Below are positions 580 through 57,698 of a stretch of DNA of 64,000 nt, piece after piece (position 1 is the stretch's first letter; each line of letters opens with the position of its first letter). The position numbers and the translations under genes were made by a program. This DNA comes from Thermoplasmata archaeon (GTDB taxonomy: Archaea > Thermoplasmatota > Thermoplasmata > RBG-16-68-12 > JAFNFQ01). The notes under the pieces are model-generated. The model had not been told where the DNA came from, ran no database searches, and saw only the letters and a program-made list of their open reading frames with translations. The stretch lies in NCBI GenBank assembly GCA_041489255.1, contig JBGPQV010000001.1, forward strand, positions 110,606-174,605. Direction: 5' to 3'.

Positions 580-582
580 GAA

Positions 583-3037: not shown

Positions 3038-3166
3038 CGCCAGCTTTGTGCATGAAACCCGCCACGATAAGCATTGTGTCCGGGGGCATTGGGCGGCATT
3101 TGGGGCATTCGCCCCCCGCCAAGCCTTTATACGAATTCAGGACCTTTCCCCGCCGAAGGGGAACCC

Positions 3167-4255: not shown

Positions 4256-4264
4256 GGTGGTGAA

Positions 4265-7033: not shown

Positions 7034-7216
7034 CTGTCACTGAGAATCGGCGAATCCTGGGACACCTGATAGGCTTCATCACATCAAGTGCGATGTGAAA
7101 ACACATCTCACCCGAAGATGTCAAAGAAGTAGTGGGCCCCATCCCCCCTCAGGACGGGGCCAGACGCGAAAGCGCCCTCCTCGACGCCCATATCAGGCAA
7201 CCTCTCCCCTCTCCCC

Positions 7217-7223
7217 TTTTTTT
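7217..7223 (+). terminator. oligo-T tract (candidate archaeal terminator) downstream of pmbA
   Basis: T7 run in the intergenic region, ~185 nt after the pmbA stop and after a 7-bp hairpin at 7079-7098. Confidence 0.2.
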
Positions 7224-7404
7224 GAGCCTGCCTGTTCCCTATTATGGATGGGCTAGCTACGTATATAACAGGTATCTGGTGTTCACCACGCGATTTACCA
7301 CTTACCAATCCGGTTGCCAATCCTCCCTTACGCGCCTCCCTTCCAGAGTGTTATCAAAAGGGGAATCATTGCTCGATACATATATATCACGGTATCCTTA
7401 TGAA

Positions 7405-13100: not shown

Positions 13101-13416
13101 GGGTCGTGGTGCCTCCTCCTGATTCCAGCGGATGGGGATTCAGCAACATGACTTTCTCATCCACAACTATCGGCACGGTTGCGTAGTTGGTGACTCGGTA
13201 ACCGCTCGGATCGAACATCGCGATTTCTACCTGCTGAATCGTTGCGAGATTCTTCGCATAGGCTTCCCAAAGGCTCATGGGACCAGCTGAAAGCGACGCA
13301 ACCTGAGACCCCTCAGAAAGCGCCGGAGTCGAATTCAGCCCGCCAACGGCCAGAATCGAGATAAACGCACTCAGAACTAGAGCAATCGCACTGCCAATTG
13401 ATAGCGCCTTAGACAC
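10120..13416 (-). CDS. secreted 1098-aa surface protein with at least five PKD-like repeats
   Basis: N-terminal signal/anchor MSKALSIGSAIALVLSAFISILAV. C-terminal half is built of repeated ~108-aa units of the form DPGSDDLTF.W...YYNDGVGPDP..SP.G.FPF...HTYGDNG.YT..L.V.DDDGG. Confidence 0.8.
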   Translation of the reverse strand: MSKALSIGSAIALVLSAFISILAVGGLNSTPALSEGSQVASLSAGPMSLWEAYAKNLATIQQVEIAMFDPSGYRVTNYATVPIVVDEKVMLLNPHPLESGGGTTTQDGVLSEWNIPTGGQVTYNYALSVIFGMAPDPKWWCTEANQVVQAGPFIHLGGEILPFAMADMVNNWTQRNQGYDQNTQTDVWNYMDTHPTLVVGKTPLYKNIPDTSGNTVDITIAVTNLGVYNSSYSDGSLVKATNSLVKETVPKGYSYNPNSFTPQPDSIVNNTDGTTTITWKVTISGADVGNKPINKPSPYHHVLLKYRLILPVLKPGREMLPRATVDTNHNGINDAHSAKPLLEIYHVNRAPLAEAGGPYAVAEDTPVKFDGSGSYDPDNGPANLTYRWDFQNDGTWDTQWSQSPMATYTWGDDYSGVAALQVSDGDLNDTDTANVTVFNVLPSGSVSISTPQQDEGSPITFSAHVTDPGSDDILFKWTWGYGAPDEFSTYYNNGASPDPFPSPDIHPRDVTDAKSHTYGDNGAFTVTVFVTDDDSGAQGTTLRVTATPGNLPPTVSVTGGTNIDEGQSVLLTATATDPGSDDLTFAWTWGDGSSDSNTYYNNGVGPDPPNSPGGTHPFTATDTGTHPYGDNGIYTATLTVKDDDGGSTSWQGQVVVANLPPEISPFGPFAVEEGSLLQVAANATDPGSDDLTFDWVFELGPAIQHIYYNDGVGPDPSQSPSGIFPFTAADAASHTYGDNAVYTIALTVTDDDGGSASWQTEINVTNVLPTISRVGPFEVYEGQPLEITANANDPGSDDLTFTWTFEYGPTIQHIYYNDGVGPDPAKSPDGIFPFSVNDTVSHTYGDNGVFTITISVNDDDTTGGGPIYWTAVTVLNVPPTIVDAEAYMLADITLRIAGEKWHDVILKLYEDGQEVGWVQVIRYPGSPNEQMATLHDVEISLSRQFSAVAYYTPDDDPINGQPNGANPAWLVITWESGMETSLHHTFNVQHPDTWIWTVDHLYIYAVNQRIHFRGTATDPGSDDLTFTWDSGDGRILTSIYYNNGAGPDPYPSPDVNPMTAMDEQVLVYGVAGTYTIMLTVTDDDGGSATMMLTITIGG
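10950..11950. repeat. tandem ~324-bp repeats (PKD-unit coding repeats)
   Basis: Reverse-strand shadow ORFs at 10976, 11300 and 11624 start with near-identical peptides (MCWIVGPYSN.., MCWIAGPSSN..), which gives a 324-nt period. Confidence 0.5.
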
Positions 13417-22744: not shown

Positions 22745-23126
22745 TTCATTCTCCCTCCCCGAATCCGGTGGTTGAGAGGTCCGAAGAGAGCCAGAAAACG
22801 ATAGCATGCGCCCTCCCTTCGAAGCGCGAAGAGCACGAACCCATGCACTCTGACCACCCCATTCCCCTTCCTCCGTACTTGGAGGATTCAGAGGACCGTC
22901 ACATCAAGAGAGCAACGCGGACGGTGACTTCCAAGTTCCGCTTCTCCACCCCCTGCGTTTCCCCTTCTGCGATAGACCCTCATCCAGCAATATTGGACGC
23001 TGGATACTTAATGCTGTCGCAGCCAGACAGTCAAAAACCGGTCGCCTTGGAAAACTCGGGCCCACTTCCGCCATCGGGATTTCGGATCGTGTGAACGCTT
23101 AAAGAGGGAGCCGCCATGCGCCGCTC

Positions 23127-37285: not shown

Positions 37286-37768
37286 TTGAAAGTCGACGAA
37301 GTGATGACAAAGAGCCCGTTCACGCTCAGACCCGACCAGACGCTGAGGGAGGCCGCGATCAAGCTGGCAGACTTGAACGTGTCAGGCGCCCCCGTGGTCA
37401 GCGAGACCGGGGGGATTCTGGGGGTGCTCAGCGAGGTCGACATCCTGGAGGCGCTGAAGACCCATTACAAGGCGCTGAAGATGCTCATGCCGCCGGAGAT
37501 CACCTTCGGCATCAGCTTCGTCGAGGTCGTGAAGGAGAGAGACGCGATCAGGGCTTTCCAGGAGCTGAAGGACGTCAAGGTCAAGGACGTCATGAAGAAA
37601 CCGATCACCGTCAACCCTGGAGACAAGGTCGAGAACGCGATCAAACTGATGGTGGAGCACAAGATCAGCCGCGTGCCAGTGGTCGACCACGAGAAGGTCG
37701 TCGGGATAGTCACCCGCGGCGATGTCCTCAAGGGGTTCTTCCGGCAGGTCGGGCAGCTCGTCCTCTAG
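37286..37768 (+). CDS. CBS-pair domain protein
   Basis: Two CBS motifs. 160 aa from TTG at 37286, or 154 aa from ATG at 37304. Confidence 0.75.
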   Translation: MKVDEVMTKSPFTLRPDQTLREAAIKLADLNVSGAPVVSETGGILGVLSEVDILEALKTHYKALKMLMPPEITFGISFVEVVKERDAIRAFQELKDVKVKDVMKKPITVNPGDKVENAIKLMVEHKISRVPVVDHEKVVGIVTRGDVLKGFFRQVGQLVL

Positions 37769-39354
37769 TCCTTCCAGAGGTTCTTGAACTTGGACCACAC
37801 GCCAGTCGGCGCCCTCCACCTGTAGGTGTAGCCGCAGTCCGAGCACCTGCTCCATCCGTCGTCGGTGAACTGAAGGCGGTTCGAACCGCACGACGCGCAT
37901 ACGCCCTCCATCGGTTTCGCTATGCCCCTCTTTGCCCTTTCTTCGACCAGTTTGGGCTCGAGCCTCCTTGAGGCCTCGGCGGCGTTCTTGGCGAAAATTG
38001 TGCCGTTCACGTAGTCGCCTTCGGTAAGGATGTCCTTGGCCTGCTGTAGGAGCGTCCGCGCTTCCCCGACGTCAATCCCGAAGCTCTCCGCCTCGTCGAT
38101 TACTGGCTCAATCTGCGTCACGATCGCCTGAGCCTTCTCGACCTGCCGCCTGCGGAGTTCCATCGCCCGGAGTATCTGGTTTTGCTGGCTCTCCATGGCA
38201 GCCCTCTCGGCCCTCTTTACCAGCTCGCTCGCGAGCAGGTATTCCTTCGACGCGAAGGCCGTCTTCGCCTTTGAGACGAGGCGCTCCGCCTCGGAGATAT
38301 CCGCGCCGACATGCTTCGCCTCTTCTATTATCAATACCGTGCCTGGAATTGCCTCTTCTATGTTCCTCAGCCGCTCTTGCTTCGCGGTCTCGGCCATCTC
38401 GATCGCCCTGGCCGAGTGCTCGAGGCTCCTCTTGTACTCGCTCCGCTTGAGTGCGTCCCTGGCCTCGCTCAGCATCTCCTCCGCCTTGCGCACGTCAGCA
38501 CCCAGGTTTGAGATGTCCCGCATGACCTCCTGTGTCCTATGTATCTCGTCCCTGGCCCTCTGTACCTCCGCTGAGAACAAGCTCCTGCTAACCGCCTCGA
38601 GTTCCTTCAGCTGCCCGTTCATCCCGCCAGTATCCCCCTCTCGGAAGAGCCTCTTCGCCGTGCGCAGGATATCCGCGGCCTTCTCCACATCCCGCCCCGC
38701 CTTGCCGCATTCCTCCACGAGGCGCTGCGCGGAAAGAATCGCGTAGGCTAGCGTCGAGTTCTCCATCTCCTTCCTGCACTTCTCTGCAGACTCCCTCGCC
38801 TCCACCGCCGCACTCAGCGCGCCCTCGAAGTTCTTCTCTTCGAAACGCATCCTCGCCTGGTCGAGCAGATCCTCGCAGTGATCGAAGTCGACTTCCAAAC
38901 TGAGGGCTTGCTTCAACGCCGGGTCGACGGTAGAGTCCTCCAGAGGAGGCAGCCTGACAGCCTCGGCTGTCTTGACAATCTCACCCTTGACCTCCTCAAG
39001 CTCGTCCTTGATCGTGTCCAACGATTTCTCGGATTTCAGCGACTCGGCGATCGCAGCTGCGGACGGATGAGAGATCAAGGTGCTGATGAGTTCCTTCCTA
39101 TGTTCATCTTTCGAGACGGAGACGCCATGTCTTGCCGCGATGTCCTTCAGTTCCTTCAGGCTCTTGCTGTCCAGCAAGTGTGGCAGGCTACCCTCCCATG
39201 CTTTGACGACGTCGCCTATGTTCTCGAGGGAGGTGAGCTTGGTGACGAACTCGTCACGCTTTTTCATGCCTTCGGTCTGGATCCCGGCCTGGGCCGCGAT
39301 CTCTTTCAGCTCGCGCAGGCTCATCTCTTTCAAACGGAGGTCGACGCGGGGCAT
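37765..39354 (-). CDS. 529-aa protein: two Rho_N/SAP-like N-terminal motifs, five ~65-aa alpha-helical repeats, C-terminal zinc ribbon
   Basis: Rho_N/SAP-like motifs SLRELKEIAAQAGIQTEGMKKRDEFVTKL and LKELKDIAARHGVSVSKDEHRKELISTLI. Repeats carry (E/D)GDY...A..A.EA signatures. C-terminal CASCGS...CSDCGY zinc ribbon. Confidence 0.7.
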   Translation of the reverse strand: MPRVDLRLKEMSLRELKEIAAQAGIQTEGMKKRDEFVTKLTSLENIGDVVKAWEGSLPHLLDSKSLKELKDIAARHGVSVSKDEHRKELISTLISHPSAAAIAESLKSEKSLDTIKDELEEVKGEIVKTAEAVRLPPLEDSTVDPALKQALSLEVDFDHCEDLLDQARMRFEEKNFEGALSAAVEARESAEKCRKEMENSTLAYAILSAQRLVEECGKAGRDVEKAADILRTAKRLFREGDTGGMNGQLKELEAVSRSLFSAEVQRARDEIHRTQEVMRDISNLGADVRKAEEMLSEARDALKRSEYKRSLEHSARAIEMAETAKQERLRNIEEAIPGTVLIIEEAKHVGADISEAERLVSKAKTAFASKEYLLASELVKRAERAAMESQQNQILRAMELRRRQVEKAQAIVTQIEPVIDEAESFGIDVGEARTLLQQAKDILTEGDYVNGTIFAKNAAEASRRLEPKLVEERAKRGIAKPMEGVCASCGSNRLQFTDDGWSRCSDCGYTYRWRAPTGVWSKFKNLWKD

Positions 39355-40466: not shown

Positions 40467-40589
40467 TAGGCGGTAGCGGTTAATGAGTTTTTAGGATTCC
40501 CGAGATGGTTGGCGTGGGTACCGCCACGGGAATAGGATTGATACTAAGCCACCGCAACCCTTTAACGATTGAGCACCATGGTGCCCGCC

Positions 40590-40664
40590 GGACCCGTGGC
40601 CTAGACAGGATATGGCACCGGCTTTCTAAGCCGGCGATCCCGGGTTCGAATCCCGGCGGGTCCG
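40590..40664 (+). tRNA. tRNA-Arg(TCT), copy 1, full length
   Basis: Acceptor GGACCCG/CGGGTCC; anticodon stem CCGGC/GCCGG; loop TTTCTAA; T-arm CCGGG-TTCGAAT-CCCGG; discriminator G. Confidence 0.8.
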
Positions 40665-40708
40665 TCTCAGACCGTATCGACCGCCCTGTTGGCTCTCGGA
40701 TAATCAGA

Positions 40709-41805: not shown

Positions 41806-41900
41806 TGGCGTTGGCGGGATATTAAGGTTGTATGGAACCGGGGGGAAAAGAAACTCCCGCCACCGCCACGGTTCGACGAGTGAATACCATAACGCCCCCC

Positions 41901-41975
41901 GGACCCGTGGCCTAGACAGGATATGGCACCGGCTTTCTAAGCCGGCGATCCCGGGTTCGAATCCCGGCGGGTCCG
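41901..41975 (+). tRNA. tRNA-Arg(TCT), copy 3, full length, identical to copy 1
   Basis: Same 75-nt sequence as 40590..40664. Confidence 0.8.
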
Positions 41976-42134
41976 TCTATTCCCGAAGAAGGATAAAACT
42001 AATCAACCGTTTAGGCCAAAGTGGTCGTTCGACCTCTTTTCCTTTGGTTCCTGTCCCCCCAAGCTCCTGCCTGGAAACGGGCGGGGACACCTTTCCTCTT
42101 TTATACATTGGATTTATTGCCGCAATCGATTCAT

Positions 42135-46568: not shown

Positions 46569-46681
46569 CTCAAATTCTCCAATAGCGGGACTCGAATCCA
46601 TTCTTTCCCATTCCGACATCTTGCGTCGATACTTTAAAGACACCGACTCTGATGTGTGTAAAAATAGGGGATGACAGATTT

Positions 46682-49600
46682 ATGTCGAAGGATTCGCACA
46701 TTCGGGCTCGCTTGATGACTGTCGTTGTCGCGTCTGCGATGGTGCTCAGCCTATTGCTCGTCTCGAGCGGTAAGACTGGAGCGCACACGGGAGATTGGAT
46801 TGATTCGGCCTGGACCACGTCCCCGCCGACGATCGATGGGTCCATGGCTGCGGGTGAATGGTCCGACGCCGCTTCAGCTGACCTGGGGGCCATCCCGGGG
46901 AACGCGTTCCTGGCATATCTCCTGGTCAAGAACGACGCGAACTTCCTCTACATAGCCTATGATGCCGTCGGGGATGCCACGGTGGACTCGATGGATGAAG
47001 CGGCCGTGTCTTTCGACACGGGCCATGACGTCACCACAACCGTGGGAGGCGAGAGTGAGTTCTCCTGGGGTCCCGGAGCGAACAACGGGCAGGCACATCT
47101 CGTGTTCGATGGTTCTGGATGGAGCACCGAGGACAGCCCCTTCGACACGGGTCTGCCTAATCACGCGGGACTCGCCAGCGCATTCGGTTACGGGCCGAGT
47201 GACCTCAACGCGCTCGACCATAGAATCTATGAGCTCCAAATTCCGCTTGCACTGCTGGATGCAGTCCCGACTGATGTGATCGGCTTTCTGGGCGCAAGTG
47301 AGCCGTCCCCCGGAGTATGGGACGCGGGCACCGGCTACGATTGCTGGCCTGCCGCCCTGACGGGCCCTCCTTCCTTGGTGGACTACGGCGATCTAAGGAT
47401 AGGCCGGGCGCCCATGGCTGCCGACCTCGACATGAACCCACCGTCGCAGGTCGGACAAGCCCTTCCCTCATCGAGCGCCGACTACACAATCACCGTGGTG
47501 AACCGCGGGACTGCCAATGATATCTTCGAAATGCAGGTGATGTCCGTCTGGGTCACCGACCTGTTCGACTCAGGAGGCGTGAACCCCCTCGTCGATAGCG
47601 ACGGGGACTTGATCCCCGACACGGGGAGCCTCGGCCCTGGGGCGAACGTCCAGATCATCGCGCGGGTGAACACTCCGGCGTCAGGCACATGCGACGATGC
47701 TCTGATCACCGGCACGTCTTCGAACGATCCGTTGACCTCGAACACCGCCGTCGTGAGCACGTGCCTCACGGGAGCTGGCCTGAATCCGCCTCATGCAGAC
47801 TCCGGAATCGACACGGATCTGCCGGCGAATGGTCTCTACGACGAGCTGCAGATCGATGTCGGCGTCATGGTAGGCACAGACGGCTTCTATGACGTCGCAA
47901 TCGACCTCTACGATCCTTCTGACGTCTTCTTCATCACATCCGGCAGCAATTACAACTACCTCTCCACCGGTCCCCAGATCGTGTCGGTCTTCCTGCAGGG
48001 GGCAACGATCTACGATAGCGGCTTCGACGGCCAGTATGTGGCGTACATCTATCTTTACGATGATTTCGGAAACACGCTGGACATCGGGATGTATGTCACG
48101 GCATCCTATATGCACACCGATTTCGACGGACCCGATGCGCTGCTGAACCCGCCGCATTCCGATTTCGGGATGGATACCGATTCCCCGCCGAACAGCCTAT
48201 ACGATGAACTATGGATCAATGTCGGCGTCATGGTGAGCGTCGATGGCTATTACGAGGTCGATGTCGCTCTCTACGATCCTTCTGACATCTTCTACATTAC
48301 ATCCGCCGTCAACTACAGCTACCTCCCCACCGGCCCTCAAAGCGTGTCGGTCATCCTTCAGGGACTGGATATCTACGACAGCGGCTACGACGGGCAGTAC
48401 GTGGCGTACATCTACCTCTATGACGACTTCGGCAATCCCCTGGACAACGGGATATACGTCACCTCGTCCTACGCGCACACAGACTTCGACGGACCGGGTG
48501 GCTTGTTCAATCCGCCGCACAGCGATCACGGCATCGACACCGATGTCCCACCAAATGGGCTGTACGACGAGCTCGTGATAGATGTGGGCGTGACCGTCAC
48601 TGAGGCCGGGACCTACGCGATAAGCGGCCCCCTCTTCGACCAGTTCATGAATTTCATCGCATTCAACAATACGGTCGTTGATCTGGCTATCGGAAACCAA
48701 GTCGTCCCCCTCGCGTTCTCGGGGCTGCAGATCTTCCTATCTGGACTCGATGGCCCCTATACCACGTCATTAGCACTCTCCGACCTCAACGTCACCCTGG
48801 ACTCAAACACCTACACCACGGGCGTATACAGCTGCACCGATTTCGACACGCTGCCCGGCCGGTTCGAGCCGCCACACAACGACCGCGGCCTGGATCTCAC
48901 TGTGCCCGCCGACGGCCTTTACGAGTTCCTTGAACTGGCGATCATAGTGAATGTGTCGGAGGCTGCCTCCTTTGAAATCGATGTAGAACTGTACGACTCG
49001 ACCGGCATGAACTACATCCTCTCGACGAATGTGATCGAGGACCTTGACTTCGGGTTGCAGACTGTGCCGGTCAGGCTGGACGGGCTCACGATACGCAACT
49101 CTGGATTCGACGGACCCTACGAGGCGGACCTATACCTCATCAGCGATTCCATTACAATCGACGTTGACATTTACGTGACTCAGGCATATCTGCATTCAGA
49201 CTTCTCCCCAGAGGGTGCCGCATTCACCCCGCCATACTCCGACTGGACCGTTGACTATGATGTACCTCCAGACGGCAAGGCCGACCTCCTTCTCGTCGAA
49301 GTGAACATCGACGTCATGATTGACGGGCCCTATTCCGTCATGGCCATGCTGGTGGCGTCCGGTTCGATATTCATCGAATTCACTGAGGTGCGACAAACGT
49401 TGACCATCGGAGTATCACCAGTCACAATCCCGTTCGATGGCCACAAGATTGCCGATTCCGGAGCGGATGGTCCGTATATGGTCGAGATGCTGCTCTATGA
49501 TGAGTATCATCGCCTTATCGATATGGATATTTACATAACAACGGCGTACGCGTCGGATCAATTCGAACTCCCTGACTTGACTGCACCCATCTCGACCGTA

Positions 49601-50935
49601 GGGGCTATGTCTTACTGGAAGAACGGGATTCCTTTGCTGGTCCCATATGCAGCCGCCGATTCATCTCCGACGGATGGACTGGAATCGGTGACCTTGTACT
49701 ACCAGTACAGCGCGGATAACTCCTCATGGAGCTCTTGGACAGAGTACTCCTCCGCTTTCACCGGCTCTAACCCGTCCGCAGGAATCATGCCGTTTACATT
49801 CCCCGACGGAGCCGGCTACTATCGGTTCCAGATGATTTCTATCGACGCGGCAGGGAATCAGGAATCGCTCGGAGCACCTGAGGCCGAAGTCGCCTATCTC
49901 CCCTTGGCTGAAGTGCGGTTCCAGCCCGATCCGCTCCCGCTCTCTGCTGGACAGCAGAGGACCCTCACCGTCTCGATACTGAGCACGAACGGTCAACCTG
50001 CCATGCTTGAATCTTCCCAAACGGTGAACCTCGACACATGGTCCCAGTCAGGGGAGTACCGTGCAGTGAGCGGCTCGACTCCGATCACGAGTGTGACCAT
50101 CCAGGCGGGTTCTTCAAGCGCGAGCGTCGACTACTACGACGCTGCAGCCGGCACATGGACGCTCCTCGGGTACACGAGTGGCGGCATTGGCGGCATGGGC
50201 GAAGCGATTGTGATCGCAGGCTCCGTCGCGTCCATTACGGTCGAACCGGGGGCGATTGCCATCGAGGTCACTCAAGCCCAAACCTTCACGGCAATTGCCA
50301 AAGACGCCTACGGGAACAGCGTATCAAGCGCCATCATAACATGGGATGTTGGCAGCAGCCTTGGCACAGTCGACGCCACCGGCAGGTTCACTGCCGGCAC
50401 CTTGGCGCGATCGGGGACAATCACAGCACGGTCCGATAGCATCCAAGGCTCCGCTGATATAATCTTGACACCAGGACCTGCGGCCGGCATCGAGGTCACC
50501 CCGGACAGCGCGACCATCCAGTCCGGAACGGAGGTGACCATCATCGCGGAGGTCGTGGATGCCTACGGGAATGTCATCAACGCCGCATCCGTCACATGGA
50601 CAGTGTCTGGTCCCGGGACTGTCAGCCCGGGCTCTGGCGCCACCACCACGGTCACCGCCAACGGTGCGGGAGCGATTTCCGTCACTGCCACCCTTGGATC
50701 GCTCAGTGCGACTGCAACTTTCACCTCGGTCGACACTGGAGGCGGGCTCTCGAGCATGGCGATAGCCGGCATCGCGGGCAGTCTCATCGGCGGTATCCTT
50801 ATCGGCTTTGCAGTCGGCTGGATCCTCCATAAGAGACGAACCAAGCCGCAACAGCCCGCGCAGATGCAGGTTCCACCGCCTCCCCCAGTGAACTTCCCGC
50901 CCGCCCAACCTCCGCTACCGCCACAAGGAACCTAA
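46682..50935 (+). CDS. 1417-aa cell-surface protein: signal peptide, 5 x ~118-aa tandem repeats, Ig-like (Big) domains, C-terminal TM + Pro-rich tail
   Basis: ATG at 46682 after GGGGA. Repeats begin NPPH(S/A)D.G.DTD.P.N.LYDEL.I.VGV... Big_2-like ITVEPGAIAIEVTQAQTFTA. C-terminus AIAGIAGSLIGGILIGFAVGWIL-HKRRTKPQQP...PPQGT. Confidence 0.8.
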   Translation: MSKDSHIRARLMTVVVASAMVLSLLLVSSGKTGAHTGDWIDSAWTTSPPTIDGSMAAGEWSDAASADLGAIPGNAFLAYLLVKNDANFLYIAYDAVGDATVDSMDEAAVSFDTGHDVTTTVGGESEFSWGPGANNGQAHLVFDGSGWSTEDSPFDTGLPNHAGLASAFGYGPSDLNALDHRIYELQIPLALLDAVPTDVIGFLGASEPSPGVWDAGTGYDCWPAALTGPPSLVDYGDLRIGRAPMAADLDMNPPSQVGQALPSSSADYTITVVNRGTANDIFEMQVMSVWVTDLFDSGGVNPLVDSDGDLIPDTGSLGPGANVQIIARVNTPASGTCDDALITGTSSNDPLTSNTAVVSTCLTGAGLNPPHADSGIDTDLPANGLYDELQIDVGVMVGTDGFYDVAIDLYDPSDVFFITSGSNYNYLSTGPQIVSVFLQGATIYDSGFDGQYVAYIYLYDDFGNTLDIGMYVTASYMHTDFDGPDALLNPPHSDFGMDTDSPPNSLYDELWINVGVMVSVDGYYEVDVALYDPSDIFYITSAVNYSYLPTGPQSVSVILQGLDIYDSGYDGQYVAYIYLYDDFGNPLDNGIYVTSSYAHTDFDGPGGLFNPPHSDHGIDTDVPPNGLYDELVIDVGVTVTEAGTYAISGPLFDQFMNFIAFNNTVVDLAIGNQVVPLAFSGLQIFLSGLDGPYTTSLALSDLNVTLDSNTYTTGVYSCTDFDTLPGRFEPPHNDRGLDLTVPADGLYEFLELAIIVNVSEAASFEIDVELYDSTGMNYILSTNVIEDLDFGLQTVPVRLDGLTIRNSGFDGPYEADLYLISDSITIDVDIYVTQAYLHSDFSPEGAAFTPPYSDWTVDYDVPPDGKADLLLVEVNIDVMIDGPYSVMAMLVASGSIFIEFTEVRQTLTIGVSPVTIPFDGHKIADSGADGPYMVEMLLYDEYHRLIDMDIYITTAYASDQFELPDLTAPISTVGAMSYWKNGIPLLVPYAAADSSPTDGLESVTLYYQYSADNSSWSSWTEYSSAFTGSNPSAGIMPFTFPDGAGYYRFQMISIDAAGNQESLGAPEAEVAYLPLAEVRFQPDPLPLSAGQQRTLTVSILSTNGQPAMLESSQTVNLDTWSQSGEYRAVSGSTPITSVTIQAGSSSASVDYYDAAAGTWTLLGYTSGGIGGMGEAIVIAGSVASITVEPGAIAIEVTQAQTFTAIAKDAYGNSVSSAIITWDVGSSLGTVDATGRFTAGTLARSGTITARSDSIQGSADIILTPGPAAGIEVTPDSATIQSGTEVTIIAEVVDAYGNVINAASVTWTVSGPGTVSPGSGATTTVTANGAGAISVTATLGSLSATATFTSVDTGGGLSSMAIAGIAGSLIGGILIGFAVGWILHKRRTKPQQPAQMQVPPPPPVNFPPAQPPLPPQGT
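47780..49550. repeat. five tandem ~354-bp coding repeats inside the surface-protein gene
   Basis: Protein-level 118-aa periodicity. Reverse-strand shadow ORFs at 47681 and 48209 are mutually similar. Confidence 0.5.
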
Positions 50936-51144: not shown

Positions 51145-52152
51145 ATGGCCGGACTTAGCCGATTCATCGTAAAGCGGAGCATCCAGGGAATCATTACTGT
51201 ACTCGTTGTCACGACCCTCGTTTTCATTCTATTCGAAGCGATGCCAGGGGACCCAATCGCTCGCTTCCGATTCGACCCGACATGTGCGAGGAACCCCGAG
51301 TGCCTTCCGCGGCTGATCGAGCAGTTCGGGCTGGACGCCCCCATCCAAGTCCGATACCTGAACTTCATGAGGAACATGTTCACACTGCAGTTCGGACTGT
51401 CTTACCAGTACAACCGGCCTGTCAGCGACATTTTGTCCGACGCGTTGCCGAGGACTCTCGGTCTATTCGGCACAGCCACCATCATCACCTATCTCCTGGG
51501 AGTGGTCATCGGCTCGCGCATCGGCTGGAAGCGCGGGGGTGCGGAGGAGGGCGGCTGGATCTTATTCAGCCTATTCTTCTACAACATGCCGTCTTTCTGG
51601 ATAGGGTTGATTTTCATCTGGATATTTGCGTTCAAGTTTGGCTTTTTCCCGTTAGGTGGCTTCCAATCCGCCAATATGGATGAGCTCGTCAACAGGTTCA
51701 CCTTCCTCAAAGGCTCGTTCCTCATAGGCCCCTTCGATTATGTCTGGCATCTGATTCTTCCTCTCACCGTTCTCGTACTCATAAACCTCGCCGGAGTCAT
51801 CCTGCTGATGAGGACTTCCCTGCTGGAAGTGCTCAAAGAGGATTACATCCTGACCGCAAGGGCCAAAGGCCTCCCTGAGCGAATCGTGCGGCGCCGCCAT
51901 GCAAATAGGAATGCCTACCTCCCGATCGTGACATCGTTCGCGATAGCCCTGGCATACTCCGTGGGCGGCGCCATCATACTTGAGCAGATTTTCACATATC
52001 AGGGGTTGGGGTACTTCTTCCTCCAAGCGATACTCACGCAGGACCATTTCCTTGCGGGCGCGACATTGTTCATCCTCTCTCTACTCGTTATTGTCGGCAA
52101 CATATTCGCAGACCTCCTATATGCGTGGCTTGATCCACGGGTGAGGCTCTAG
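51145..52152 (+). CDS. ABC transporter permease, Opp/Dpp/Nik-type (OppB-like)
   Basis: 335 aa, binding-protein-dependent transport inner membrane component topology. Confidence 0.85.
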   Translation: MAGLSRFIVKRSIQGIITVLVVTTLVFILFEAMPGDPIARFRFDPTCARNPECLPRLIEQFGLDAPIQVRYLNFMRNMFTLQFGLSYQYNRPVSDILSDALPRTLGLFGTATIITYLLGVVIGSRIGWKRGGAEEGGWILFSLFFYNMPSFWIGLIFIWIFAFKFGFFPLGGFQSANMDELVNRFTFLKGSFLIGPFDYVWHLILPLTVLVLINLAGVILLMRTSLLEVLKEDYILTARAKGLPERIVRRRHANRNAYLPIVTSFAIALAYSVGGAIILEQIFTYQGLGYFFLQAILTQDHFLAGATLFILSLLVIVGNIFADLLYAWLDPRVRL

Positions 52153-52162
52153 GAGAAATCGC

Positions 52163-54439
52163 ATGGTTGATCCAGAGAAGGCGGAAATAAGCACTCTCAG
52201 AACATTGACCAGAACGATCAAGAAGTCCTGGGCATTGTTCAAGCGCAGCAAGCTCGGCCTCGCAGGAACCGCCGTAATCGCAATCTTCGTGTTCCTTGCG
52301 GTTTTCGCTCAATGGATTTCGCCTTTCACCCCCGAATTCCTTGCCCCCGACTCAGACGTCTTCAAAGAGGTCTCATACACCAAGACGTACAACGCGAGCG
52401 CGCATCTCTACGATCCGGTGATCGGCCCTTCGGCGCCCAAAGATCCCCTCAAACAAGGGGGAAGACTTTGGATCATCATGACACGAGAAGATGGGCGGGT
52501 CTTCATGGATCCCGTCATGAGGAATGCGACTCCATTCAGTGATCCGGGAGCCATGCTTGAGTTCAACATAACGGACTTCGGGCTAAGGACCCCTGTCACC
52601 AACATGCTGTACATTGTGCCCGGCCGCAACAGGCTCGGTCAGACTGAGTTCTATGACGACCTGAGGAAGAATGGCCTGCTCGCATTCGTCGCGAACCAAG
52701 AGCTCATCCTATTCGACCCGTTCCAGAGCCGAATCCTGTACAGGGATGACGTCGGGTTCCAGCCCAAGTGGTTCGTCGAGGATCCGGTGTCTTCCGGGGA
52801 CATGTACGAGTTCCCCCTGCTACTCTATGACGTATTCAGCGGATTCCATACCTGGCGATTCATCGTCGCCGCGAACGATACTCACGTGACCGTCTACCGC
52901 GTGAACTACAGATCGAGCCAAGACTCGCCTCAGCTGAGTGGCGTGGACAAAATAGTCTCCGTCGACTTGCCGGTTACGGCCATGCCCCTCGCGTATTACC
53001 TGCAATTGAATGACCAGCGCTCCGGCATCCTTGTTCCAACCGCCAACAACAAGCTTGCCGTTTTCTCCATAGATGGCACGGTTCGCGTTGACTTGAATCT
53101 GACCCTCGGCGGAGAGCCGTCGAATGTCACCGCTCCAATCGGCTACATCAGGGCTCCGGAAATCTTCATGCTTTATGTGCCGCTTAAGTCCGCCAATAAC
53201 GCAGGGATAGGTTACCTCTTGCCGAGGGACACGAGACTCGGGAATCTAACCTTCGAACATGAGCTCGTGATAGATGACCCCAACGCAACCGTGACCGTCC
53301 AACCCGACCCCGGCAATGCTGACACGCCGCAATTCGTGCTGACGCATTACAGTGCCGGTAACCCTGTGAGCAGCGATCTTCTGCGCGGGTCGCCGAACGG
53401 CATGCTCGACCCCGTCGTGGACGTTCCCCTTTCGAGACCGGTCATTGGCTTCTTCTTCAGCCCAACGACCTCGCAGGTCATGGCGCTCGACACAGACGGC
53501 ACTGTATGGAGCCATCCGACCGTTTCGTTGAGCGTGCTGCGCCAAGGATTGACGAACTTCCTGCGTAACAGCGACCCGAACAGGAAAACGCTGATGTACA
53601 TGGGCAGCTGGGGTGGTGCCAAGTACAGCATACAGATGTCCAGCGAGGAGACACTGGCGCTGGTGTTTGAGCCAGGCACGGGCAGGACGACGATACTCAA
53701 GATCATCGGAACATCCATCGCCCCTCTTCCCCCAGGCAAGTATCCCTCGGGCAACACCTATTGGCTTGGAACAGATGATCAGGGTCATGACATCCTCACA
53801 CAACTGATCTACGGCTCAAGGGTCGCGCTCGAAGTCGGTATCGTGGCGGCGCTCGCTGCCGTCGTGATCGGCACGATCGTAGGCCTTGTCGCCGGATTCT
53901 ACGGAGGGCTGCTGGATACAATCCTGATGAGGTTGACTGACATAGCCCTGGTCCTCCCGTTCCTCCCCATAGTCCTGATACTTGCGGCAATTCTGGGTCC
54001 AAGCATTCTCAACATAATCATCGTGATAGCGGTTCTGGGTTGGCCCGGCATCGCTCGTGTAATCAGAGCGCAGACTCTGTCCCTGAAGGAGAGACCATTC
54101 GTCGATGCGGCCCGCATTTCTGGAGCGTCGAGGAGCAGGACCATGATAATCCACATCGGGCCAAACGTTCTGCCGTTCGCCTTCCTGTACATGACGCTCA
54201 ACGTCGGCGGCGCCATCTTGACCGAAGCCGCTGTCAGCTTCCTTGGCCTAGGCGATCCCAGACCGGGCGCTGTTTCATGGGGCATAATGCTCCGCACGCT
54301 CAGTTCATCGGGGAACACCCTTACCGCATGGTGGTGGCTCCTGCCCCCGGGCCTCTGCATCACGCTCGTGTCGCTCGGATTCTACCTGGTAGGGAGAGCC
54401 ATAGATGACATCGTGAACCCAAGACTGAGGGAGAGGTGA
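52163..54439 (+). CDS. ABC transporter permease, OppC-like, with ~430-aa extracytoplasmic insertion after TM1
   Basis: 758 aa. TM1 LAGTAVIAIFVFLAVFAQWISPF. OppC core resumes at YWLGTDDQGHDILTQLIYGSRVAL (~aa 520). The insertion is beta-rich. Confidence 0.8.
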   Translation: MVDPEKAEISTLRTLTRTIKKSWALFKRSKLGLAGTAVIAIFVFLAVFAQWISPFTPEFLAPDSDVFKEVSYTKTYNASAHLYDPVIGPSAPKDPLKQGGRLWIIMTREDGRVFMDPVMRNATPFSDPGAMLEFNITDFGLRTPVTNMLYIVPGRNRLGQTEFYDDLRKNGLLAFVANQELILFDPFQSRILYRDDVGFQPKWFVEDPVSSGDMYEFPLLLYDVFSGFHTWRFIVAANDTHVTVYRVNYRSSQDSPQLSGVDKIVSVDLPVTAMPLAYYLQLNDQRSGILVPTANNKLAVFSIDGTVRVDLNLTLGGEPSNVTAPIGYIRAPEIFMLYVPLKSANNAGIGYLLPRDTRLGNLTFEHELVIDDPNATVTVQPDPGNADTPQFVLTHYSAGNPVSSDLLRGSPNGMLDPVVDVPLSRPVIGFFFSPTTSQVMALDTDGTVWSHPTVSLSVLRQGLTNFLRNSDPNRKTLMYMGSWGGAKYSIQMSSEETLALVFEPGTGRTTILKIIGTSIAPLPPGKYPSGNTYWLGTDDQGHDILTQLIYGSRVALEVGIVAALAAVVIGTIVGLVAGFYGGLLDTILMRLTDIALVLPFLPIVLILAAILGPSILNIIIVIAVLGWPGIARVIRAQTLSLKERPFVDAARISGASRSRTMIIHIGPNVLPFAFLYMTLNVGGAILTEAAVSFLGLGDPRPGAVSWGIMLRTLSSSGNTLTAWWWLLPPGLCITLVSLGFYLVGRAIDDIVNPRLRER

Positions 54440-54442
54440 GCC

Positions 54443-55462
54443 ATGCCGTTGCTCGAAATCCAAGACCTCGTGGTGCACTACAAAATCAAGACAGGCTGGG
54501 TGCATGCGTGCGACGGAGTCTCCCTACATCTGGACAGAGGCGAGACCCTCGGCCTCGTCGGAGAATCCGCCTGCGGCAAGACCACACTGGCGTACGGAAT
54601 CTCGCAACTGCTGCCCTCCAACGCCTACATCAAGGGCGGAAGGATCGTGTTCAACGGCCAGAACCTCCTTCAGCTGTCGATGAGGAAGGACGGGAGATTG
54701 AGAGAATACGAACCTAAGCTCAACAAGATACGCTGGAAAGAAATCTCCATGATTTTCCAGGGCGCGATGAACGCCCTCAACCCGGTCCACCGCGTCGGTG
54801 ATCAGATAATCGAGGCGATAGTCTTCCATGAGCGCGTCACAAAGCAAGTCGCGAGGATGAGGGTCGAACAGCTCTACGACTTGGTCGGCGTGCCCAAGGA
54901 CCGCATCGACAACTATCCGCACGAGTACAGCGGTGGCATGAAACAGAGGGCGATGATAGCCATGGCCCTCGCATTGAACCCCAAGCTCGTCATCGCGGAC
55001 GAACCGACTACCGCCCTCGACGTCATCACTCAAAGCAAGATACTCGGAAGGATCAAGGACTTACAGAGTCAGCTGGATATGGCGATGATAATCATTACGC
55101 ACGACGTTTCCGTCGTTGCGAAAACCGCGAAGAGAATCGCGGTGATGTACGCCGGCCAGTTATCAGAGATCGGCACCACTAGGCAAGTATTCAAGGAAAC
55201 GGCGCACCCCTACACTTCCGGTCTCCTTGGTAGCTTCCCGAGCGTGAAGGGCGAGGTGCGCAAGCTCACGACGATCAAAGGGAATCCTCCGAGCCTCGTG
55301 GAGCCGCCGACCGGCTGCCGCTTCCACCCCCGTTGCCCATATATGCAGGACATCTGCAAGACCGTGCAGCCTCCTGCGGTGGACATGGGTGACAATCACT
55401 TCTCGCAGTGCCACTTCTCCAAGGAACTCGCAGGAACGCTGTCTCCAGAGGTGTTCGGGTGA
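54443..55462 (+). CDS. ABC transporter ATP-binding protein (OppD-like)
   Basis: Walker [10 protein letters not shown], signature LSGGMKQR, Walker [14 protein letters not shown]-terminal oligopeptide-type extension. Confidence 0.85.
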
Positions 55463-56529
55463 TCACTGCGCCAGCCGTCCCGGTCACAGACGCCTCCAGG
55501 ATCCTCACTATCCAAGATTTAGTCAAGCATTTCGAGTTGAAACAGTCGTTCTTCGCTATGTCGGGCCCGCCGCTGACGGTGACGGCGGTCGATGGCGTCT
55601 CGTTCAGCATCAGGTCAGGCGAGATACTTGGCCTGGTGGGCGAGTCCGGATGCGGCAAGACGACGGTAGGTCGCCTCATCGCGCGATTGGAGAACCCAAC
55701 CGCGGGCCGGATCGACTTCCTCGGCGTCGACATCGCGACAATCAGAGGCAGCGATCTTGTCGCTTTCAGGAAGTACATTCAGATGATCTTCCAAGACCCC
55801 TACGAATCGCTGAACCCCAGATTCAGCGTTTTCCGCGCGGTCGTCGAACCCTTGAGAATCCTAGGCATCGGCGACACGAAAGAACAGCGCCTCGAGCTCG
55901 TGATCAAGGCGCTGGAGGATGCAGGCCTGAAGCCTGCCGAGGAATTAATCGGACGTTTTCCCCATGAACTGAGCGGCGGGCAAAGACAACGAGTCGCCAT
56001 AGCCCGCGCGCTCGTGGTGGGCCCCAAGTTCATTGTGGCTGACGAACCCGTGAGCATGCTCGACGTCTCGATCCGAGCGGGTGTCATGAACCAGATGCTC
56101 GAGCTCCGGGACAAGTACGACATACCTTTCCTCTTCATCACTCACGACATATCAGTGGCGAGGTATATGTCAGACACAATCGGCGTCATGTATCTCGGGA
56201 AAATCGTGGAAACGGGGCCGACGGAGCAGATTATCAACCAGCCAACCCACCCGTACACGAGGGCCCTCCTCGCTGCGGTCCCGGTGCCAGATCCGGAGCA
56301 CGCGTATCCGCCCGTGCCGATAAGCGGAGAACTGCCGAGCCCGATCAATGTTCCGAAGGGCTGCAGGTTCCACACGAGGTGCGTCTACGCTACTCAGTTG
56401 TGCAGGGAGGTGGACCCCGCGTCCACCGAGGTCAGTCCGGGCCATGCAGCCCTATGCCACTTCGCCTACGACTTCTTCTCCATGGGGCCTTACACCCCGC
56501 CGGCTCCATTGCCGCCCAAGGAGGGATAG
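55459..56529 (+). CDS. ABC transporter ATP-binding protein (OppF-like)
   Basis: [17 protein letters not shown] and [12 protein letters not shown] motifs. GTG at 55459 overlaps the upstream TGA (GTGA). Track ORF starts at 55408. Confidence 0.8.
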
Positions 56530-56534
56530 GGCCC

Positions 56535-57200
56535 TTGCGGGTCAACCCGAAGAGGTTGAAGATAATCCGCATCACCGCTTGGGCATCGCTTCTCGCTTTG
56601 ACATTCTCTTTCGCGGGCCTCTCCCTGCTGAGTGCCGCAAACTACACCGACGTCGCGTTTGCAAAGCTGTCCGTCGAGATTGGCGCGGACCTCGTCATTG
56701 AGGCCTCGGCTCTTGGAACCTCCGGGGAAGTCCTCGACGGAACGGTGTTCTGGTACAATGCCACGATAAACGTGTCGAATCCAAGCCAGAGGACCGTGAA
56801 GCTCCAGTATATCAAATACCAGGGATGGATCGAGGACTACATCACGGAGGACCATTTCGGCGGGACTTTCACGAGCTATTACCCCATGCTCACCGCGAAC
56901 CAGAGCTATCCGGCGAACTCCGGGATCATTGCTCCCCAAAGCGCGGAAACATACCAAATGAACTGGACGCTCAGCCATCCGCAGCAGCTGGTCTACTTCG
57001 AGGGAACGCAGCAAATCTTAAACTACGTGCTCCTGAACTCGAGCCGCCATCTGCGCTGGGACCAGGCATCATGGAACCATTTCTTCGTGTTCCGACTCAC
57101 GGTGACGAATGTGCCAACAGACTACTACGGACCCAATTCTGACTATCTGTCCCAACTCCCGGTGATAACGAAGACGCAGGGGGTCAGCCATGGCAGCTAG
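56535..57200 (+). CDS. secreted/anchored hypothetical protein
   Basis: TTG at 56535 gives MRVNPKRLKIIRITAWASLLALTFSFAGLSLLSA signal/anchor. N-glycosylation sequons. Track ORF 56379..57200 overlaps oppF out of frame. Confidence 0.45.
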   Translation: MRVNPKRLKIIRITAWASLLALTFSFAGLSLLSAANYTDVAFAKLSVEIGADLVIEASALGTSGEVLDGTVFWYNATINVSNPSQRTVKLQYIKYQGWIEDYITEDHFGGTFTSYYPMLTANQSYPANSGIIAPQSAETYQMNWTLSHPQQLVYFEGTQQILNYVLLNSSRHLRWDQASWNHFFVFRLTVTNVPTDYYGPNSDYLSQLPVITKTQGVSHGS

Positions 57201-57215
57201 GCTGGAGGGGGGGTA

Positions 57216-57698
57216 GTGTTCAAGCTCTCCAGGGCCCTGTTGAAGCGGATCGCGAGGATCATCGTCCTTTCCCTCTGCATCGGGACGGTGGTCGGCTACC
57301 TGTCGTTCTACATGATGATGCCGAGCGTGTCAGTGCCCCAGACAAACAGCCCGTCGCTGGCGGTGGCTGGCCTTTTCCTCCTCGTGGTCGGTGTCCTTGC
57401 AGGGGCTTTATCGGAAGATCTTGAGTCGATGACTATCGAGGCGCTCTCAGGGATAGGGATAGGCGTCGTGCTCGGCTGGCTTCTCTTCATCTCGCCATCC
57501 GCCAACCCGGACATTATGATACCGAATGCCGGGGGATACATCATCAACGTCATCCATGCCGCACTGCCCCTGATAATCCTGGCGGTCTTGACCCTCTTCA
57601 TTGGAGGTTTCATCGGAGGAATGATCATGGAAAGCATGCAGGCGAAAGGCGCATCCTCCGTGTTCGATAGAATGAATGCGGGGAAGAAAGCCGAGTAG
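57216..57698 (+). CDS. hypothetical membrane protein (4 TM)
   Basis: 160 aa, hydrophobic helices, GTG start. Confidence 0.45.
   Translation: MFKLSRALLKRIARIIVLSLCIGTVVGYLSFYMMMPSVSVPQTNSPSLAVAGLFLLVVGVLAGALSEDLESMTIEALSGIGIGVVLGWLLFISPSANPDIMIPNAGGYIINVIHAALPLIILAVLTLFIGGFIGGMIMESMQAKGASSVFDRMNAGKKAE

Follow-up and report, generated by a model that had tools for sequence, protein, structure and literature searches.

A predicted eight-bladed beta-propeller within the OppC permease of an Opp/Dpp-type ABC importer from a Thermoplasmata-type archaeon

The 64-kb stretch of DNA analysed here (the window) contains an operon of oppB-oppC-oppD-oppF followed by two small conserved genes for membrane proteins, referred to as X and Y (Table 1). 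Pfam recognizes both permeases above its curated cut-offs, one as OppB type (BPD_transp_1_N at residues 6–107 and BPD_transp_1 at 119–334) and the other as OppC type (OppC_N at residues 21–58 and BPD_transp_1 at 570–756, with no Pfam match between them), the permease pair of the PepT or Opp/Dpp family (TC 3.A.1.5). The best NCBIfam matches to both are Opp/Dpp/Nik permease models, all below the equivalog cut-offs (Opp4B and Opp2B for OppB), and the Opp4C/DppC models cover only residues ~529–756 of OppC. Both ATPases have the oligo_HPY extension and a C-terminal 4-Cys motif, with the Walker A, signature and Walker B motifs intact (including the Walker B Glu in OppD). The GTG start of oppF (55459–55461) overlaps the oppD TGA (55460–55462), its frame is open to 56529, and the same 4-nt overlap is found in relatives. 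By its sequence, the system is a type I ABC importer of the PepT family, from a Thermoplasmata-type archaeon. Of the two downstream products, X has an Ig-like or LEA-2-type beta-sandwich ectodomain with many glycosylation sequons and is kept in all family operons with readable downstream DNA; Y lies directly 3′ of X throughout the family in an alignment across loci, and has no match in Pfam or NCBIfam.

Table 1. Coordinates of the operon, of the segments of OppC, and of the gene upstream, numbered from the first base of the window.
Feature	Coordinates	Strand	Description	Basis
1427-aa surface protein	46652..50935	+	Ends 209 bp before oppB, in the OppA slot of relatives	
oppB	51145..52152	+	OppB/DppB-type permease, 335 aa; P1 (scoop-motif) region intact	Pfam
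oppC	52163..54439	+	OppC/DppC-type permease bearing the insertion, 758 aa	Pfam, NCBIfam, homologues
OppC TM1	52253..52309	+	Residues 31–49	Hydropathy and charge count
Predicted propeller domain with two short linkers	52322..53758	+	OppC residues 54–532; 8 N-X-S/T sequons	
Conserved OppC core	53759..54436	+	Residues 533–758: GTDxxGxD motif, TM2–TM6, coupling helix	Pfam, NCBIfam
oppD	54443..55462	+	OppD-type ATPase, 339 aa	Pfam ABC_tran and oligo_HPY
oppF	55459..56529	+	OppF-type ATPase, 356 aa	Sequence, Pfam ABC_tran and oligo_HPY, motifs
X	56535..57200	+	TTG start; single-pass membrane protein, 221 aa, identical to P0049	
Y	57216..57698	+	160 aa, four hydrophobic (predicted transmembrane) segments	Alignment across loci, hydropathy

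The oppC gene carries a large insertion, which extends from 'PFTPEFLAPD', just after TM1, to 'YWLGTDDQGHD' (about residues 535–545) and comprises ~480 residues with its linkers, ~450 of them folded. It occupies P1, the first extracellular loop of OppC, between TM1 and the GTDxxGxD motif. A word search identified 17 homologues (31–100% identity) with this same architecture, and because they keep it, the gene with its insertion is real and not a chance open reading frame. Across the family the OppC core is 70–96% identical and the inserted domain 31–73%; the domain is thus faster-evolving, yet never lost. Public annotation describes these proteins simply as 'peptide/nickel transport system permease', and the domain is therefore currently invisible in databases.

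A high-confidence AF2 model (pLDDT 88.5, pTM 0.88) shows the insertion as an eight-bladed beta-propeller, with 33 strands that fall into eight blades, as grouped from the strand list rather than from coordinates, and the blades, four-stranded antiparallel sheets, arranged as a toroid. On this grouping the last blade appears to be closed by the N-terminal strands, and such a closure would bring both termini of the propeller together, as insertion into a loop requires. There is no Pfam match on OppC residues 60–560, a profile search of PDB sequences with the insertion gave nothing credible, no WD40, PQQ or Kelch sequence repeat is recognizable by either approach, and identity to the structural neighbors is 8–10%.

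Several features bear on the location of the propeller. First, the OppC N-terminus preceding TM1 is basic and cytoplasmic (8 K/R in 30 residues), and the loop at residues 50–557 is net acidic. Second, the insertion contains 8 N-glycosylation sequons where 3.4 are expected, and the 17 homologues together contain 169 where 62 are expected (a ~2.7-fold excess); there are none in OppB, the OppC core, OppD, OppF or Y. Third, the topology of DppC is known, with the N-terminus inside and P1 outside (PMC10954201, PMC12136057). Together these indicate that the propeller is extracellular, and it is predicted to be N-glycosylated. The initial annotation had arrived at much of this description. Its B-C-D-F order with the overlapping oppD and oppF, its 758-aa OppC with a domain between TM1 and the YWLGTDD core, and its downstream 221-aa and 4-TM proteins all agree with the coordinates and homologues; its proposals that the insertion faces outward with sequons, that it might be a beta-propeller, and that relatives might share the fused architecture are borne out, although the ~430 aa assigned to the insertion is slightly too small.

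The propeller family is tiny, with ~30 representatives among 1.84 billion proteins (36 matches, two of them spurious), all from Thermoplasmata-type archaea. Family loci number two among 185,579 species (one representative genome each) and 11 in metagenomes. The fusion of the propeller to OppC is strictly kept down to ~30% identity, always together with the X and Y genes. The propeller is the conserved feature that defines this very small group of archaeal proteins; the propeller-bearing Opp/Dpp importer is a rare, undescribed variant. In one relative (L024) OppB also bears an insertion, Ig-like and ~320 aa long.

There are also stand-alone TM-propeller-TM paralogues situated away from any ABC genes, with neighbors that include TBP, asparaginase, AbiEii or methyltransferase genes, and these keep the most conserved motif of the family (GFQPxWFVQDxVSAGxMYxFP). 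Because they nest within the fused family and contain GTDxxGRD motif and TM2 remnants, they look like fragments derived from OppC and not like the source of the domain. Their persistence nonetheless means that the propeller has a function independent of an adjacent OppA, and even of membership in a transporter.

[quoted passage not shown] The window, in which all open reading frames of at least 450 aa were scanned, contains no SBP_bac_5 gene, nor do the syntenic loci L005 and L009 within their 10-kb flanks, and a tblastn search of the window with the head of a relative's OppA gave no match. Among the relatives whose upstream DNA can be read, however, the two most divergent, L007 and L023, do have such a gene. 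In each, oppB is directly preceded by a gene for a giant OppA (1473 aa with SBP_bac_5 at residues 94–510 in L007, and 1583 aa with SBP_bac_5 at 139–553 in L023), followed by the same B-C(propeller)-D-F-X-Y arrangement, with propellers 35% and 30% identical to that in the window, respectively. These giant OppAs have an SBP_bac_5 head, an Ig-like stalk and a C-terminal TM anchor. In L010 the upstream protein aligns with the L007 OppA over the latter's tail (E 4e-76), and this locus probably also carries an OppA. Midpoint rooting of an NJ tree places the OppA-bearing clade of L007 and L010 outside the window's clade (L023, with the most divergent propeller at 30% identity, was left out of the tree). 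The comparison shows that the operon has lost its OppA gene in the window's clade, and that the slot is either empty or contains a gene for an unrelated 1427-aa surface protein.

The 1427-aa protein has a signal or TM segment at residues 21–39, an N-terminal beta-rich head, five tandem repeats of ~120 aa (residues ~375–975), Ig-like Big_2/Big_1 domains at 1192–1358 (only weak Pfam matches), and a C-terminal TM anchor at 1370–1388 followed by a Pro-rich tail. An SBP_bac_5 domain is absent, as are NCBIfam matches and any similarity to the L007 OppA head, and the only matches among PDB sequences are to LigA-type Ig domains. Giant PKD/Ig surface proteins are abundant in the window.

Whether the importer still depends on a binding protein can be considered in light of the Dpp structures. 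E. coli DppBCDF has no ATPase activity without DppA, into which the DppB scoop motif inserts (PMC12136057), and the OppB-type P1 scoop region contacts the SBP in the solved structures (PMC12136057, PMC10954201). In M. tuberculosis DppABCD, loops P1 and P3 of DppB and loop P3 of DppC make contact with DppA, and DppC P1 is not among the contacts listed (PMC10954201); a domain in OppC P1 can therefore coexist with a docked SBP. Within the propeller family, clades with and without OppA show the same degree of conservation in the OppB P1/scoop region, and conservation of this kind suggests that SBP dependence is probably retained. The initial annotation had stated that no OppA-like gene (>500 aa) is adjacent, which is correct insofar as the window has no SBP_bac_5 gene but overlooks the 1427-aa protein adjoining oppB. 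The evidence does not support its larger suggestion, a built-in capture domain that takes the place of the binding protein, given the OppAs of L007 and L023, the conserved OppB scoop, the compatibility of OppC P1 with a docked SBP, and the overlooked occupant of the OppA slot.

We therefore favor, as the best explanation overall and one that we place just on the probable side, that the propeller is an accessory to a binding-protein-dependent importer and not an SBP substitute. The giant OppA encoded in the L007 and L023 operons indicates that the propeller evolved alongside a binding protein, and its retention in such distant relatives that the propeller probably assists and does not replace it. 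Held on short linkers, the propeller would sit directly above the OppC periphery, adjoining the place where an SBP would dock on the OppB P1 and P3 loops and the OppC P3 loop, and could act as a fixed extracellular platform that binds or orients a partner; the candidates are the head of the tethered OppA, the ectodomain of X, and a polymeric or glycan-bearing substrate precursor. The imported substrate may be a peptide, a metal chelate or an oligosaccharide. Delivery of substrate into the translocation pathway would still be through an SBP, which in the window's lineage would be encoded elsewhere in the genome (with no SBP_bac_5 in the window or the L005 and L009 flanks, it is assumed and not seen). 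By analogy with the MalF P2 loop, the propeller most likely serves as an auxiliary platform on the cell exterior, next to where the SBP docks.

A different role could apply to the window's clade only, in which, following loss of OppA, the propeller would capture substrate and hand it to the OppB/OppC cavity as a covalently attached receptor lacking the periplasmic-binding-protein (PBP) fold. Propellers often bind ligands or peptides at the top face or in the central channel, this one is extracellular, well folded and under selection, the stand-alone paralogues suggest a self-sufficient binding module, and SBP_bac_5 is lacking from the window and from around the syntenic L005 and L009 operons. 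However, the propeller is older than the loss of OppA and coexists with it in L007 and L023, its invariant residues are mainly Gly, Pro and aromatic with no obvious clade-specific new binding site, and the OppB scoop region, which engages the SBP cleft (PMC12136057), shows no decay in the clade that lacks OppA. Moreover, orphan SBPs that serve permeases encoded elsewhere are common, as is reported for DppA1–5 of P. aeruginosa (PMC4206461). We thus consider this role unlikely, and quite improbable its extended form, in which the propeller of the OppA-less lineage, alone or with X, would be the first type I receptor without a PBP fold and the stand-alone TM-propeller-TM proteins would be permease fission products that retained the receptor function.

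It is also conceivable that the 1427-aa protein succeeded the giant OppA as a tethered non-SBP receptor or harvester in partnership with the propeller, perhaps binding a polymer that is then imported as fragments. It shares the position, strand and general design of the giant OppA (signal peptide, ectodomain, Big_1/Big_2 stalk, C-terminal TM and cytoplasmic tail), and is 70% identical to the giant protein of L005, with the same identity in L006 and a partial copy in L015. Yet it is missing from L009, whose operon is otherwise identical between the same flanking genes and which has no OppA either, its resemblance to OppA is a weak Ig-domain match only (E 0.002), it has no recognizable binding or catalytic domain, and the gap separating it from oppB is at odds with the tight packing of the other genes. 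Such a succession is highly improbable, and the transporter probably does not count the 1427-aa protein among its core components. Finally, the propeller could have no direct role in uptake, being a surface module (for envelope or glycocalyx organization, adhesion, or oligomerization with X and Y) for which TM1 and TM2 of OppC are a mere anchor. The stand-alone paralogues in unrelated gene neighborhoods would fit this, as would the wealth of giant surface proteins in the window and the OppB insertion of L024, from which the lineage seems to decorate its permeases with surface domains. The strict retention of the OppC fusion to ~30% identity, always with X and Y, argues otherwise, as does the appearance of the stand-alone forms as nested OppC derivatives, and we consider a role of this type improbable.

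As currently understood, type I ABC importers rely on a binding protein with a single conserved fold, and few elaborations of their outer face are known, namely fused substrate-binding domains and the P2 loop of MalF. A propeller in an extracellular permease loop is a new kind of elaboration, found in an importer with a tethered OppA of 1.5 kaa in some lineages, no OppA in the operon of others, and X and Y in all. The family allows three naturally occurring states to be compared (OppA present, replaced and absent), and this could show how archaea without a periplasm organize the capture of substrates on their surface. Unless uptake turns out to be independent of an SBP, the practical impact is modest.

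The system can be compared with several known ones. With canonical Opp/Dpp importers (E. coli DppABCDF; M. tuberculosis DppABCD and OppABCD) it shares an OppB with BPD_transp_1_N and a scoop P1, an OppC with OppC_N, two ATPases with the oligo_HPY extension and 4-Cys motif, the tightly coupled B-C-D-F order and, in its deep-branching relatives, a cluster C SBP encoded upstream. It differs in that canonical OppC is about 300 aa in contrast to 758 aa here, with the ~450-residue propeller in P1; canonical OppA is soluble or a lipoprotein, whereas that of the relatives is 1.5 kaa with a C-terminal TM anchor; and the window's operon has no OppA gene and has X and Y added after oppF. Fused importers of the OpuA/GlnPQ type also have an extracytoplasmic domain covalently joined to the translocator, with some operons lacking a separate SBP gene, which is the design that the initial annotation had suggested. 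In the OpuA/GlnPQ type the fused domain has the two-lobed PBP fold and is at a terminus of the transmembrane domain, whereas here an all-beta propeller is inside a loop, and in L007 and L023 a genuine separate SBP coexists with the fusion. Eight-bladed envelope propellers similar to BamB are likewise membrane-associated extracytoplasmic scaffolds that bind proteins, and one of them, Rv3035, is reported to bind the SBP-fold lipoprotein FecB (PMC13041763), an example of such a propeller with a partner of PBP fold. They are only 7–14% identical in sequence, and are separate lipoproteins or anchored proteins of outer-membrane or arabinan biogenesis and not domains of ABC permeases. The MalF P2 loop of E. 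coli MalFGK2-E is similarly a large folded extracytoplasmic loop domain that coexists with a separate SBP, and L007 and L023 show this same combination of a folded domain in a permease loop (OppC P1) and a separate SBP. MalF P2 is Ig-like, about 180 residues long, and located between TM3 and TM4 in another importer family, in contrast to the ~450-residue, predicted eight-bladed propeller between TM1 and TM2 of OppC. It nevertheless provides a working model, by analogy, for the propeller as an accessory docking platform with a putative SBP contact.

Six closely spaced forward-strand genes fill positions 51145-57698 of the window, and their open reading frames, sequences and Pfam matches bear out the initial annotation of an Opp/Dpp-type operon ordered B-C-D-F, with the in-frame GTG of oppF overlapping the TGA of oppD, followed by a 221-aa protein and a 4-TM protein (X, which is single-pass, and Y, which has four hydrophobic segments). 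The large insertion after TM1 of OppC is likewise evident, both in the reading frame and as a gap between the OppC_N and BPD_transp_1 matches; it is slightly larger than the ~430 aa first estimated, and the extra segment covers residues ~54-532, from 'PFTPEFLAPD' (just after TM1) to 'YWLGTDDQGHD' (before TM2). The Walker A, signature and Walker B-Glu motifs are all intact in OppD and OppF, and both carry, within the oligo_HPY region, a C-terminal C-x5-C-x6-C-x17-C motif (residues 292-323 and 302-333, respectively) resembling the [4Fe-4S] sites of bacterial Dpp/Opp ATPases (PMC12136057). The four Opp proteins match NCBIfam models of the Opp/Dpp/Nik/Gsi/Cnt type, with every match under the equivalog cut-off, and no substrate can therefore be assigned; the nickel, oligopeptide, dipeptide, opine and glutathione models all score far under their cut-offs. 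Archaeal genes in the window encode the PriL primase subunit, TruD, deoxyhypusine synthase and Lhr helicase. Elsewhere in the window, an 840-aa protein consisting of an N-terminal TM, a Pro-rich linker and ~600 aa of Glu/Lys/Arg/Ala-rich coiled coil, with no Pfam match, explains why GC and AT are so strongly skewed in the 32-34 kb bin; an ORF with a weak Rho_N match in a second skewed bin may resemble it. There are also two tRNA-Arg(TCT) genes 1.3 kb apart.

Coordinates of features in the window and at related loci
Sequence	Feature	Position	Strand	Description
Window	Surface protein	10120-13416	-	1098 aa; PKD domains
Window	Surface protein	18269-22807	-	1512 aa; PKD domains
Window	Coiled-coil protein	31758-34280	-	840 aa
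Window	ORF	37765-39354	-	weak Rho_N match
Window	tRNA-Arg(TCT)	40589-40666	+
Window	tRNA-Arg(TCT)	41900-41977	+
Window	Giant surface protein	46652-50935	+	1427 aa; ends 209 bp upstream of oppB
Window	Tandem repeats of giant	~47783-49580	+	residues ~375-975; starts 378, 499, 620, 739, 859
Window	oppB	51145-52152	+	335 aa; BPD_transp_1_N and BPD_transp_1
Window	oppC	52163-54439	+	758 aa; OppC_N 21-58, BPD_transp_1 570-756, no domain match between
Window	oppD	54443-55462	+	339 aa; ABC_tran and oligo_HPY
Window	OppD Cys motif	55316-55411	+
Window	oppF GTG	55459-55461	+
Window	oppD TGA	55460-55462	+
Window	oppF	55459-56529	+	356 aa; ABC_tran and oligo_HPY
Window	OppF Cys motif	56362-56457	+
Window	X	56535-57200	+	221 aa; TTG start; sequence of database protein P0049
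Window	Y	57216-57698	+	160 aa
L007	Giant OppA	4463-8884		1473 aa; SBP_bac_5 94-510 (E 6e-66)
L023	Giant OppA	3948-8699		1583 aa; SBP_bac_5 139-553 (E 6e-54)
L024	Enlarged OppB	111-2072		653 aa
L001	Stand-alone propeller	10001-11569
L002	Stand-alone propeller	2142-3845
L020	Stand-alone propeller	5544-7172
L028	Stand-alone propeller	1949-3547
L029	Stand-alone propeller	117-1736

The insertion was modeled with AlphaFold2 from a 17-sequence alignment, giving an all-beta structure of 33 strands (mean pLDDT 88.5, pTM 0.88). Grouped from the strand list alone, the predicted strands are read as eight four-stranded blades, which agrees with the beta-propeller that the initial annotation had suspected. 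Two N-terminal strands appear to complete the last blade; this closure would put the two termini on one side, which insertion into a loop requires. Foldseek recovers only generic WD40-type propellers (Cake8, SCAP and ODA16 have the top target-normalised TM-scores), and the structural neighbors are scaffolding WD40/BamB proteins, with enzymes ranking lower. The domain has no Pfam match, and the family profile finds no credible match among PDB sequences; the fold is a common one, but the sequence family is new. A catalytic propeller was set aside, as the invariant residues are nearly all Gly, Pro or aromatic and neither a catalytic constellation nor a cofactor motif is visible in the alignment.

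Seventeen relatives of the propeller came from a word-indexed search of 5.8 billion proteins. When 1.84 billion cluster representatives were searched exhaustively with an HMMER profile, 36 matched at E <= 1e-3, of which two are spurious (multi-C2 eukaryotic proteins). There are only two propeller loci in a collection where each of 185,579 species is represented by one genome (labeled 'Thermoplasmata archaeon' and 'Methanobacteriota archaeon') and 11 in JGI metagenomes. Full-length members come in two forms, permeases of 725-832 aa in which the domain occupies residues ~55-550, and stand-alone proteins of 520-570 aa; their public names are 'peptide/nickel transport system permease protein' or 'ABC transporter permease' only. 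No account of a propeller, or of any other large domain, in OppC or in ABC importer loops turned up in full-text literature searches. Across the family, identity is 70-96% in the transporter core and 31-73% in the propeller, and the fused architecture sought in relatives is kept in homologues down to ~30% identity; an artefact, a pseudogene and a recent insertion are each rejected on the retention of this architecture from 100% to ~30%.

The order B, C(propeller), D, F, X, Y is common to every locus with readable downstream DNA, and X and Y follow oppF in L005, L007, L008, L009, L023 and L024 as in the window (56535-57698). Both are alignable across the family (24-46% identity), and the X family, with nine proteins, is as small as that of the propeller. 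The ectodomain of X is a generic Ig-like or LEA-2-type sandwich whose fold gives no functional lead. X and Y seem to occur nowhere outside propeller operons, and may be dedicated subunits of the transporter. In one divergent relative (L024/L025), OppB is also enlarged, beside a propeller-bearing OppC of 779 aa, by a sequon-rich, Ig/filamin-like insertion of ~320 aa directly after the hairpin of the P1-loop scoop motif.

Several features bear on the location of the propeller. First, OppC has a basic N-terminus (8 Lys/Arg within the first 30 residues) ahead of TM1 (residues 31-49), and the loop that follows (50-557) is net acidic, with 38 K/R versus 53 D/E. Second, archaeal N-glycosylation takes place outside the cell, and the insertion contains eight N-X-S/T sequons versus 3.4 +/- 1.7 expected from composition; 169 versus 62 expected are present in the propellers of 17 homologues, six versus 2.3 in the X ectodomain, and none in OppB, the OppC core, OppD, OppF or Y. 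Third, the N-terminus of DppC is inside and its P1 loop outside (PMC10954201, PMC12136057). Together these indicate that the insertion domain is extracellular, the outward orientation originally proposed.

Stand-alone propeller proteins (including P0010-P0013, 522-567 aa) have a TM on each side of the propeller and end in a short basic tail. Their C-terminal TM aligns with TM2 of OppC, remnants of GTDxxGRD are kept in P0010 and P0013 ('DGRD' and 'GVD'), and a tree places them as the sister group of the window's clade, within the fused family; they seem to have arisen by fission of a duplicated oppC. They retain GFQPxWFVQDxVSAGxMYxFP, the most conserved stretch of the family. No ABC genes are nearby in five different contexts. 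A TBP gene is directly downstream in two lineages, and in two others the stand-alone gene lies between AbiEii toxin genes and genes for a collagen-repeat protein and a methyltransferase.

The initial annotation reported no adjacent OppA-like gene (>500 aa). Indeed, a Pfam scan of all ORFs of at least 450 aa finds no SBP_bac_5 (binding protein, SBP) gene within the window, and tblastn with a relative's OppA head finds nothing there better than E 0.7, but the 1427-aa gene beside oppB had been overlooked. Its product consists of a signal/TM segment, a beta-rich head with no known domain matched, five ~120-aa tandem repeats each opening with an N/E/T-P-P-H/Y motif, Big_2/Big_1 Ig-like domains, a C-terminal TM and a Pro-rich tail. 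PDB sequence matches are to LigA-type Ig domains only, and no cryptic SBP was found in it: Pfam, NCBIfam and PDB sequences give no signal, and the L007 OppA head shows no similarity to it. Very large extracellular proteins are unusually abundant in the window, two more of which contain PKD domains.

Relatives differ in what precedes oppB. In L007 and L023, whose propellers are 35% and 30% identical to the window's, the upstream gene encodes an OppA exceptionally large for a binding protein, with an N-terminal SBP_bac_5 head, ~900 aa of Ig-like domains (MG4, Big_1, CARDB) and a C-terminal TM anchor; in L010 (31%) it encodes a truncated protein matching the L007 OppA tail (E 4e-76). The window, L013 (99% identical) and L005/L006 form one clade, in which a giant surface protein without an SBP domain (70% identical between window and L005) lies between deoxyhypusine synthase and oppB. 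Two further members of this clade are L015 (59%), where the readable part of a partial protein at a contig end is a Big_2/Big_1 tail only, and L009, where the flanking genes are as in the window and a 580-bp gap holds no ORF. This census covers about seven loci; the contigs of L008, L011, L026, L027 and L024 end just before oppB, and we suspect that repeats of the giant gene cause such assembly breaks. In a midpoint-rooted neighbor-joining tree of propellers, from which L023, the most divergent, was left out, the OppA-bearing L007/L010 group is outside the window's clade. The simplest history starts from an ancestral operon ordered giant-OppA, B, C(propeller), D, F, X, Y; the window's clade then lost OppA from the operon, and in some of its members an unrelated surface-protein gene took the slot.

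Solved Dpp structures serve as the comparison for the mechanism. E. coli DppBCDF requires DppA and shows no ATPase activity without it; the DppB P1 scoop motif inserts into the DppA cleft (PMC12136057). In DppABCD of M. tuberculosis, the loops that touch DppA are P1 and P3 of DppB and P3 of DppC (PMC10954201); the DppC P1 loop, the site of the insertion here, is absent from the contacts listed. The OppB P1 region is equally conserved in OppA-bearing and OppA-less clades (invariant P34, G35, P37, F41, D44, P45, F61, G62). We slightly favor an SBP-dependent importer with an accessory propeller, the SBP for the window's lineage being encoded elsewhere in the genome. The linkers are short (the low-pLDDT ends of the modeled segment are ~12 residues N-terminally and ~7 C-terminally), which would place the propeller at the OppC periphery beside the SBP docking site. 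There it could bind or orient a partner, whether the head of a tethered OppA, X, or a substrate source that is polymeric or glycosylated, in a role likened to that of the MalF P2 loop.

The initial proposal that the propeller replaces the binding protein is unsupported by the comparative evidence, L007 and L023 having a giant OppA beside the propeller operon. In its narrower form, a built-in receptor in the OppA-less clade, it seems unlikely, as does a surface function unrelated to transport; both are kept alive by the persistence of stand-alone propellers and by the lack of an SBP gene near L009. It is very doubtful that the 1427-aa protein is a replacement receptor. It is like the giant OppAs in overall design, with sequence likeness limited to a weak Ig match (E 0.002), and its absence from L009 makes an obligatory place in the transporter unlikely.

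The propeller-bearing importer is real and rare, an undescribed variant in architecture of a class of transporters that is well known. Its permeases and ATPases assign it to the PepT/Opp-Dpp ABC family, and the operon-encoded SBP of that family is missing from the window. It does not count among the SBD-fused importers of the OpuA/GlnPQ kind: their fused domain has a binding-protein fold, and the domain here does not. The closest system in concept is MalF-P2, from which it differs in fold, loop and family.
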